From: Escherichia phage Phi1
DNA: 64,000 bases
Reading direction: 5' to 3' (one strand)
Sequence record: EF437941
Part shown: one piece after another, positions 43,231 to 58,448 of the stretch
How positions within the stretch are numbered: the stretch's first letter is position 1
Layout: the number at the start of each line of letters is the position of its first letter
Position numbers and translations under genes: made by a program
The notes under the pieces: model-generated
What the model was told of the DNA's origin: nothing
The model's input: only the letters and a program-made list of their open reading frames with translations
Database searches by the model: none

Positions 43231-43487
43231 AGTTTCCTCAACCAGTTATTAAAGCGAGTAAACCATGATGCTTTTCGTGCTTCTTCTTCGGCTTTGCACG
43301 CACGCAAACCACTGAAACACCATTCATAATCATCACTGAAACATGATTCAACAGGAACACCCGCATTTCGTAGTTCTCTGGTCGTTATCATGAATCCTTG
43401 ACATAATGGGCGACCTTCAACAATGATAGGAAGTTTAACTTTTTCCATGAAAGTATACCCAGCACGGTCAATAATTTCAATCTTCAT
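43227..43487 (-). CDS. paralog family B protein
   Basis: MKIEIIDRAGYTFMEKVKLPIIVEGR...; paralog of 43505..43702 and 45820..46041. Confidence 0.5.
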   Translation of the reverse strand: MKIEIIDRAGYTFMEKVKLPIIVEGRPLCQGFMITTRELRNAGVPVESCFSDDYEWCFSGLRACKAEEEARKASWFTRFNNWLRKL

Positions 43488-55438: not shown

Positions 55439-55611
55439 TCACCAAACAAATAAGAAAAAAGCCATATCAACAGAAACGAGGCAATTGATCCGGCAAGCAA
55501 AATGATATTAGAGAATCCGCCGTCTATCCAGGCGACAAAACAGAATACGCCAGTATAGAAGCATAAACCCATTACAAAGCATACTATAAGCAACCATAGA
55601 CAAAACGCCAT
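55423..55611 (-). CDS. small membrane protein
   Basis: 62 aa, hydrophobic. Confidence 0.4.
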   Translation of the reverse strand: MAFCLWLLIVCFVMGLCFYTGVFCFVAWIDGGFSNIILLAGSIASFLLIWLFSYLFGEWGLL

Positions 55612-55672
55612 AGAAAGCCCTCCATCGAGATAAATTAGTGCGGGTAGGGGACTGCACTACCCGCTTTGTTAA

Positions 55673-55831
55673 TCAACGCAGAGCTTGTTCTAGCGCGATC
55701 CCAAACCATCCACAAACAACGCCCATACAGACAGCTACAAGAAGATTCATTCTCTCTTTAGGGATCATTGCAATCATAACAACAACCATACAGAAAGCCA
55801 TTACCATTGAAGTTAACATTTGTTCAACCAT
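55673..55831 (-). CDS. small membrane protein (52 aa)
   Basis: manual translation MVEQMLTSMVMAFCMVVVMIAM... Confidence 0.35.
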   Translation of the reverse strand: MVEQMLTSMVMAFCMVVVMIAMIPKERMNLLVAVCMGVVCGWFGIALEQALR

Positions 55832-55833
55832 TA

Positions 55834-56172
55834 TCACACCTTTAAAGTCATAGACGCATAAACATTAATGCCAGGCCAGTTAGGATCGCAATTATACTCA
55901 ACATCCCACAAATAAAGCGGTTTAGATGTATCAGCCAAGTTTTTAAAATCTTCTACCCACATTTCAATGCTATATGATGGATAAACTAGGCTGTCATATC
56001 CTCCGTAACGTTGGCCTACTGGTCGGTCAGTAAAAACTACCTCAAGATCCGGTAATTCTTTTTCAAGGATAACCGCCAGCGCATAAATCAGACGGTCTTC
56101 CTTGTTACGCTGCCGAAGGACCGTTGTCAGTTGGTTTTTCTGGTTCACTAGCAAGCACCTCCACATTTTCAC
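55834..56172 (-). CDS. hypothetical protein (start uncertain; overlaps upstream ORF by 68 nt)
   Basis: 112-aa ORF. Confidence 0.4.
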   Translation of the reverse strand: MKMWRCLLVNQKNQLTTVLRQRNKEDRLIYALAVILEKELPDLEVVFTDRPVGQRYGGYDSLVYPSYSIEMWVEDFKNLADTSKPLYLWDVEYNCDPNWPGINVYASMTLKV

Positions 56173-56425
56173 AGAATGAAATTTTCACAGACACAATTTT
56201 ACCATAAGTGAAGAATGAATATACATTATCGATATATTCAACGTCACCTACAATCACATCAAACTGCGGATCAGCAACCGCCGCAACATATTCTACCAGT
56301 TCATCAAGAGAATGCAACTTAATTTCATCAATTCGGCTGTATTTGGTTGCATCTTTGATTTTAAAACCACGTTCTTTCAGCTTATCAATTAGAATTTCAC
56401 GCGGAGTTTCAAACAGTTTGCTCAT
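56105..56425 (-). CDS. hypothetical protein
   Basis: 106-aa ORF with GAGGATT RBS. Confidence 0.5.
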   Translation of the reverse strand: MSKLFETPREILIDKLKERGFKIKDATKYSRIDEIKLHSLDELVEYVAAVADPQFDVIVGDVEYIDNVYSFFTYGKIVSVKISFCENVEVLASEPEKPTDNGPSAA

Positions 56426-56446
56426 AATATAATCCTCACATTAAAT

Positions 56447-56647
56447 CTAAAATTTGTTAACGACGAATTGCATAATTAGACTAATCACAAACATTGCAAA
56501 CCAAGTATAAATGCAACAGATAAAAGCTACATACAATTCAATCTGGTCAGAGAATACACCGGGTAAAAGCATTAGCAAAATAACAACAGTAAAGACGCTA
56601 GCGATACCCGCAACAAAACCAATATCATTTTTACTAATCGTCATCAA
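56447..56647 (-). CDS. small membrane protein
   Basis: 66 aa hydrophobic. Confidence 0.45.
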   Translation of the reverse strand: MMTISKNDIGFVAGIASVFTVVILLMLLPGVFSDQIELYVAFICCIYTWFAMFVISLIMQFVVNKF

Positions 56648-56853
56648 GTCACCGTTTTGTAAAGAAACACAATAAAATCCAAGACAAGAAAGACAGTGTA
56701 AATGATCATCGTCAAGACAGTAAACACTGTCAAATTTTCATCGTTAGTTAATTCATAGTCGCCCATCCATACAATCACAAGATATAGCATTGAAAGAATG
56801 GAAGCACCTACGAAGTTAAAAAACATATTCTTGAGCGTCATATTAACAACCAT
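56644..56853 (-). CDS. small membrane protein
   Basis: 69 aa hydrophobic. Confidence 0.45.
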   Translation of the reverse strand: MVVNMTLKNMFFNFVGASILSMLYLVIVWMGDYELTNDENLTVFTVLTMIIYTVFLVLDFIVFLYKTVT

Positions 56854-57360: not shown

Positions 57361-57402
57361 TTTGATACTCCTTAGTAGTTCGTGTTTCGTTTCGATGGGT
57401 GT

Positions 57403-57431
57403 ATTATGCTATACACCCTCTTGTGTGTCAA
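57403..57431 (-). promoter_or_regulatory. early promoter
   Basis: TTGACA-N17-CATAAT. Confidence 0.5.
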
Positions 57432-58362: not shown

Positions 58363-58391
58363 ATTATGCTATAGGCCGGATCTGGTGTCAA
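58363..58391 (-). promoter_or_regulatory. early promoter
   Basis: TTGACA-N17-CATAAT. Confidence 0.5.
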
Positions 58392-58415: not shown

Positions 58416-58444
58416 CAATAAAAAAGCCACTCCGAAGAGTGGCT
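58416..58444 (-). terminator. rho-independent terminator
   Basis: AGCCACTCTTCGGAGTGGCT hairpin (UUCG loop) followed by T6. Confidence 0.6.
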
Positions 58445-58448
58445 TATA

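Follow-up and report, generated by a model that had tools for sequence, protein, structure and literature searches.

Do two small, overlapping reading frames of Escherichia phage Phi1 represent one gene, broken by an error or joined by frameshifting, or two genes of which the second starts inside the first? In the analysed stretch of this genome (sequence record EF437941, 64,000 nt; hereafter the window), the ORF listing gives ORF1 at 56425..56105 on the minus strand (106 aa, ATG start at 56425, TAA stop at 56107-56105) and a maximal ORF2 at 56172..55834 on the same strand (112 aa, GTG start, TGA stop at 55836-55834). ORF2 is read in the +1 frame relative to ORF1, as (56425-56172) mod 3 = 1. 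The earlier note had reported a 68-nt overlap (56105..56172), and the listing is identical; this value applies to the maximal ORFs, and the likely overlap of the genes is 44 nt. The note was also correct that ORF2 has no start outside the overlap, since its frame contains neither ATG, GTG nor TTG from the ORF1 stop up to the first internal Met codon. Inside the overlap, the in-frame candidates are GTG 56172, ATG 56166, TTG 56154, and GTG 56148. We consider it very likely that ORF1 and ORF2 are two independent, co-transcribed small genes of the early region, and that ORF2 starts at GTG 56148 inside ORF1, giving a 44-nt overlap. The two genes and their overlap are the following.

56105..56425, minus strand: ORF1 (RB49p109, phrog_16584), placed by the ORF listing, the RB49 annotation, pN/pS, and the distant homologues P0004 and P0008.
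55834..56148, minus strand: ORF2 in its likeliest form of 104 aa (RB49p108, phrog_16246), placed by annotation, pN/pS, and the homologues P0003, P0005, and P0006.
56105..56148, minus strand: 44-nt out-of-phase overlap of the ORF1 tail with the N-terminal 14-15 codons of ORF2, characterized by substitutions and pLDDT.

The window derives from a Krischvirus, an RB49-like T4-type coliphage. Megablast with positions 55600-56700 as the query retrieved 57 phage records, all of them Krischvirus (RB49, JSE, GEC-3S, ECD7, and others), at 90-99% identity. ORF1 corresponds to RB49p109 (NP_891680) and ORF2 to RB49p108 (NP_891679), both hypothetical proteins in the RB49 record. The RB49 proteins and their Krischvirus orthologues are 98-100% identical, lie in the same order, and have the same GTG-based 44-nt overlap; the window shows no material difference from the RB49 pair and represents another Krischvirus isolate. 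The 106-position profile phrog_16584 matches ORF1 over its full length (residues 1-106, E = 7e-72), and positions 1-104 of phrog_16246 match residues 9-112 of the maximal ORF2, that is, from the GTG start (E = 1.3e-71). Pfam returned no match for either protein, and a literature search found no mention of ORF1 or ORF2 and neither proteomics nor initiation mapping for either. The pair is located in the hyperplastic early region between the dNMP kinase and endolysin genes, and the ORF1-ORF2 interval contains neither a convincing terminator nor a strong promoter.

Both proteins were recovered by tblastn at full length and at least 95% identity in all 57 Krischvirus records, and the same search of 50,697 phage records found nothing outside Krischvirus. 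A related-locus search of IMG/VR gave the ECD7 copy only, and a metagenome scan gave only three Krischvirus-like contigs. We aligned 24 copies, consisting of the window, 20 GenBank copies, and the three metagenomic copies. Their alignment runs for 592 nt without a gap or indel, and the TAA stop of ORF1 is invariant in it. These results bear on the suspicion, raised in the earlier note, of a sequencing indel, and on the related reading that an indel from assembly or a frameshift of recent origin split one ancestral gene and left a pseudogene. The overlap does contain a homopolymer:

56135..56139, minus strand: A5 run, the sole homopolymer in the overlap able to slip or to carry an indel, not conserved in the 24-copy alignment.

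A one-base deletion would join the two ORFs into a product of about 197 aa. However, an identical layout with both frames kept is found in all 57 independently sequenced genomes and in the three metagenomic contigs, no indel separates the aligned copies, both halves bear the marks of purifying selection, the sister lineages described below carry a separately started gene for each half, and no fused homologue was found. The chance that an indel or a split gene explains this locus is therefore minute.

The substitutions in the 24 copies also speak to the coding status of each frame. In the 253 nt of ORF1 outside the overlap, pN/pS is 0.05 with 0.130 variable sites per nt; in the corresponding 268 nt of ORF2, pN/pS is 0.20 with 0.187 variable sites per nt, and 30 of the 50 ORF2 substitutions fall at codon position 3. 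Judged from these substitutions, the cores of ORF1 and ORF2 are under purifying selection. The same figures weigh against the reading that no gene lies behind ORF2, the frame downstream of ORF1 being open by chance. Such a reading could appeal to the missing Pfam match and to the absence of ORF2 from the annotation of three isolates (PHB13, FL04, and W115), but it conflicts with the third-position bias and the low pN/pS, with homologues that are 38-57% identical in syntenic position in three lineages, with a confidently predicted core (AlphaFold2 pLDDT 81-92), and with a strong Shine-Dalgarno (SD) sequence. We give it almost no credence.

The SD sequence is the element that the earlier note overlooked: GGAGGTG (56162-56156) lies inside the overlap, 7 bases before GTG 56148. 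The features relevant to the ORF2 start are listed here.

56156..56162, minus strand: SD of ORF2, GGAGGTG, within ORF1 codons 88-90, assigned from the 16S duplex energy and conservation.
56146..56148, minus strand: likeliest ORF2 start, a GTG spaced 7 nt from the SD, unchanged among the 24 copies and favored by SD energy.
56164..56172, minus strand: upstream GTG 56172 and ATG 56166, the source of the apparent overlaps of 68 and 62 nt, probably unused to judge from SD energy and substitutions.

SD energies were calculated for the duplex between the 20 nt upstream of a candidate start and the 3' end of 16S rRNA. The arrangement GGAGGTG-N7-GTG at 56148 gave -13.0 kcal/mol, compared with -10.9 for the strongest SD in a set of 34 long ATG genes of the window, and energies of -11 or below occur at 1.1% of background positions. 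TTG 56154 would use the same SD at a spacing of 1 nt, which is too close. GTG 56148 is invariant and the SD core AGGT is kept in 24 of 24 copies. When the junctions are aligned, GGAGGTG and GTG 56148 correspond to the SD and ATG of the ORF2 homologue in the metagenomic lineage L010. By these comparisons, ORF2 most likely begins at GTG 56148, with a product of 104 aa and an overlap of 44 nt. The suggestion of an unusual internal start was thus essentially right, with GTG 56148 standing behind a very strong SD within ORF1.

A separate ORF2 could instead start at ATG 56166 (110 aa, 62-nt overlap) or at GTG 56172 (112 aa, 68-nt overlap), or both starts could be used. ATG is the canonical start codon, and among the 20 GenBank records examined, five annotate ORF2 from this ATG, 12 annotate the GTG start, and three lack ORF2 (the isolates named above). 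A similar GAAAATG context is found at the true start in lineage L012. Two stop variants, each from one deposited genome and each possibly a sequencing error, also concern this codon. In G37-3 (MK327941, locus 412-414), GAG is changed to TAG at 56161, and the ORF1 stop created in this way shares bases with ATG 56166 in ATGTGTAG, a junction of the classic coupling type. In PHB13 (MK573636, locus 416-418), two substitutions together create a TAG in the ORF2 frame at codon 6, upstream of the GTG start and between it and ATG 56166; since this stop separates the two codons, ORF2 in PHB13 can start only downstream of the ATG. ATG 56166 and GTG 56172 moreover have no appreciable SD, both giving -3.7 kcal/mol against a background mean of -3.8. 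The 24 copies differ by four substitutions across the 24 nt from 56172 to 56149; each alters the ORF2 residue (W4L, W4C, C6Y, and C6W) and two leave the ORF1 protein unchanged, so that codon 4 changes from Trp to Leu or Cys and codon 6 from Cys to Tyr or, in PHB13, to a stop. The distant homologues start still further downstream. An upstream start is accordingly unlikely, and GTG 56148 is retained as the start of ORF2 in what follows.

Distant homologues were sought with an exhaustive HMMER search of 1.84 billion protein representatives, using an artificial ORF1-ORF2 fusion as the query. P0004 (83 aa) and P0008 (88 aa) match ORF1 at residues ~4-86, and the matches to ORF2, which begin near residue 24, are P0003 (105 aa), P0005 (88 aa), and P0006 (84 aa). 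No genuine fused homologue spanning both halves was found among the 1.84 billion representatives. One further match across the artificial junction, P0007 (E 1.4e-7), is an 801-aa repeat protein with LPQTG and was judged an unrelated repetitive match. A word-indexed search of 5.8 billion proteins with the fusion query returned no match at E <= 0.01, despite the proteins deposited in GenBank. A paralogous origin of ORF1 and ORF2 is not claimed here, as the hhalign alignment between the two families is topologically sensible and non-significant (E 0.025, probability 2%).

The homologues of ORF2 occupy the syntenic position in three lineages other than Krischvirus, whose junctions were read from short metagenomic (Logan) contigs of uncultured origin (L010, L011, and L012; runs SRR8048113, SRR6474908, and SRR8048119). 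L010 and L011 are syntenic with the dNMP kinase-endolysin region of Krischvirus at ~69-75% nucleotide identity over the alignable parts, and on this basis they are sister lineages. In L010, the TGA of P0008 is followed by one base and then by the ATG of P0003, a 1-nt gap, with the motif GAGGG-N5-ATG. In L011, P0004 and P0005 overlap by 8 nt, with GAGGTG-N4-ATGAATAA, and in L012 an ORF1-like frame and P0006 likewise overlap by 8 nt, with GGAG-N6-ATGATTGA. In every one of these contigs the ORF2 homologue is preceded by an SD of its own and begins with ATG, and the +1 relation of ORF2 to ORF1 holds across the four lineages. The comparison with orthologues thus gave the outcome that the earlier note had named in advance as refuting, with separate genes and independent starts in L010-L012 and a 44-nt overlap that is annotated in RB49. 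A TAA interrupts the reading frame of the ORF1 homologue at L012:1-266 not far from its 5' end (LREMIV*WLTDDGF) and from the contig end, and this homologue is either a pseudogene or affected by a contig-end error.

The separate homologues also bear on programmed frameshifting or a merged gene, which the earlier note had proposed. The version best suited to this locus is a prfB-like +1 frameshift that produces a minor ORF1-ORF2 fusion besides the two separate products. The shift site of prfB (RF2) is AGGGGG-N3-CUU UGA. As in prfB, ORF2 is in the +1 frame, and a strong internal SD-like element, GGAGGUG, lies 0-2 nt upstream of a CUU codon (56155-56153); in addition, the overlap is long, and both frames are open in all but one of the 24 copies. 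Unlike prfB, the sequence GGAGGUG CUU GCU AGU places GCU in the A site, which is neither a stop nor a rare, slow codon, and re-pairing of tRNA-Leu on UUG in the +1 frame is poor by established codon logic. The site also varies among isolates, as PHB13 has GUU instead of CUU, and both the ORF1 stop of G37-3 and the ORF2-frame stop of PHB13 lie upstream of it, so that no shift site is common to both. The A5 run reads AGAAAAACC in 14 copies, AGAAGAACC in seven, AGAAAACCC in two, and AGAAAAGCC in one, and is broken in 10 of the 24. A 126-nt region folds less stably than its shuffles (z = +1.54; 192 of 200 shuffles were equally or more stable), which leaves no downstream structure and speaks against an RNA fold that stimulates shifting or masks the SD, and Rfam gave no match anywhere in the window. 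The downstream ORF, again unlike that of prfB, has its own start, its homologues are separate genes, and a fused homologue is absent from the search. We consider a programmed +1 shift highly improbable.

GGAGGUG abuts CUU in the position of an SD-like stimulator, but its role as the SD of ORF2 accounts for it fully. There is a very slim chance that in most Krischviruses it does both, starting ORF2 and pausing ribosomes on ORF1, which might cause a low-level prfB-like +1 shift and a minor fusion of ~23 kDa. If so, the fusion would join two possibly ancient paralogues acting as a pair, and isolates like G37-3 would have lost it without lethality. A -1 frameshift based on a heptamer and a structure was rejected, since the ORF2 frame is +1, an X XXY YYZ heptamer is absent, and no structure is found. 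The tail-assembly chaperone pairs that use -1 shifts (lambda gpG/gpGT; the T4 gp26/gp28 region) resemble the present locus in that their ORFs overlap and the downstream ORF seems to have no start outside the overlap. Unlike those pairs, ORF1 and ORF2 are related by +1 instead of -1, have neither the heptamer nor a conserved slippery run, and belong to the early region instead of the tail genes.

With two separate genes as the preferred reading, the length of the overlap can be considered through the proteins that it encodes. In the family alignment, the conserved core of ORF1 ends at about residue 87 (…ISFCEN), the homologues stop 0-5 residues later, and the 19 residues that follow in Krischvirus are not present in the distant homologues.

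56105..56164, minus strand: C-terminal tail of ORF1, VEVLASEPEKPTDNGPSAA, with its stop, Krischvirus-specific and predicted to be disordered, delimited by the family alignment, AlphaFold2, and the G37-3 stop.

On the other side, the conserved core of ORF2 starts with NKED at residue 15 (104-aa numbering), at the end of the overlap. AlphaFold2 predicted folds of moderate-to-high confidence for the cores of both ORF1 and ORF2. The block-mean pLDDT is ~50 for residues 81-106 of ORF1 and below 50 for residues 85-96; in ORF2, pLDDT is < 50 for residues 1-14 and 81-92 for residues 21-40 and 61-104. The ORF1 tail and the ORF2 N-terminus are thus predicted to be of low confidence or disordered. The 44-nt overlap has nine substitutions (0.205 per site) and is the most variable segment of the alignment. 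Since pN/pS is 0.40 in both of its frames, the overlap shows no sign of double constraint. By these comparisons, it is loosely constrained, comprising a lineage-specific ORF1 tail and the N-terminus of ORF2.

The stop in G37-3 falls at ORF1 codon 89, shortens ORF1 to 88 aa, and removes the tail while recreating an 8-nt junction; the GenBank record is annotated accordingly. We infer from this natural variant that the ORF1 tail is dispensable. The probability that 19 random codons remain open is ~0.4, and the open tail therefore needs no selective explanation.

Since the sister lineages have short junctions and Krischvirus has a long overlap, the loss of a stop codon seems to be the most economical history, as drawn from four lineages only. 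The ancestral stop of ORF1 would have been at or beside the ORF2 start, with a 1-nt gap or an 8-nt ATGnnTnA overlap, as in the three sister lineages. Krischvirus would then have lost that stop, and ORF1 would have been extended by ~19 codons, reading across the 15 codons with which ORF2 opens, up to a fortuitous TAA. This read-through may have added a disordered, weakly constrained, and dispensable tail to ORF1. In the present-day phage, ORF1 and ORF2 would be carried on one early-region transcript, ORF1 would be translated from ATG 56425 at a stereotyped GAGGATTATATTATG site, and ORF2 would be initiated independently from the SD GGAGGTG (56162-56156) and GTG 56148 inside the 3' end of ORF1.

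56423..56437, minus strand: stereotyped ribosome-binding region of ORF1, GAGGATTATATTATG, with 15 copies in the window versus 0.23 expected.

Exact copies of this motif occur on the minus strand at 2107, 14581, 36547, 37780, 38403, 41912, and 56423, and eight more have one or two mismatches. It is also present before the homologues in L010:661-675 and L011:3515-3529. Given this distribution, GAGGATTATATTATG may serve some of the early genes as a ribosome-binding cassette that is conserved and possibly regulated. Elsewhere in the window, near-consensus sigma-70 promoters (TTGACA-N17-CATAAT) are found at 58363-58391(-) and 57403-57431(-), and stem-loops adjoin them at 58424-58445(-) and 57397-57418(+). 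The sequence around these sites is repeated, and two spurious ORFs read it as ...YSIIHPSKRNT... Cassettes of promoter and stem-loop (PeSL) have been described for RB49 and phi1 (PMC2839356), and the pairs in the window look like these by analogy.

The arrangement itself is already known, having been annotated for years in RB49 and its relatives, and it is an ordinary though unusually long overlap. As in ordinary bacterial and phage overlaps that arise by stop loss or start shift, the genes are on the same strand in +1 phase, the SD and start of the second lie inside the first, the overlapping termini are lineage-specific and poorly constrained, and the sister lineages have short ATGA-type or 8-nt junctions. 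It differs from them in its length, 44 nt against the usual 1, 4, or 8 nt. Between 30 and 80 kb of RB49, with ~100 pairs of neighboring genes, it is the longest overlap, followed by 35, 19, 19, and 14 nt. The 35-nt overlap belongs to RB49p071/p072 (RB49 43269-43303; L027:13270-13304), equivalent to ~43 kb in the window.

The SD of ORF2 includes GGAG (56159-56162, minus strand), which is the cleavage motif of RegB in a subset of T4 mRNAs, according to the regB note in the RB49 record. By analogy, the RB49-like window probably encodes a regB homologue too. Purely as an inference, if RegB cleaves the ORF2 SD, the mRNA of ORF1 would be cut and initiation of ORF2 would be lost together.

Beyond annotation hygiene the finding carries little weight; public Krischvirus records disagree on ORF2, and the comparative evidence favors the 104-aa GTG form. 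The locus would also provide a small, clean example of a long overlap formed via the loss of a stop codon, which G37-3 seems to have reverted by a new stop.
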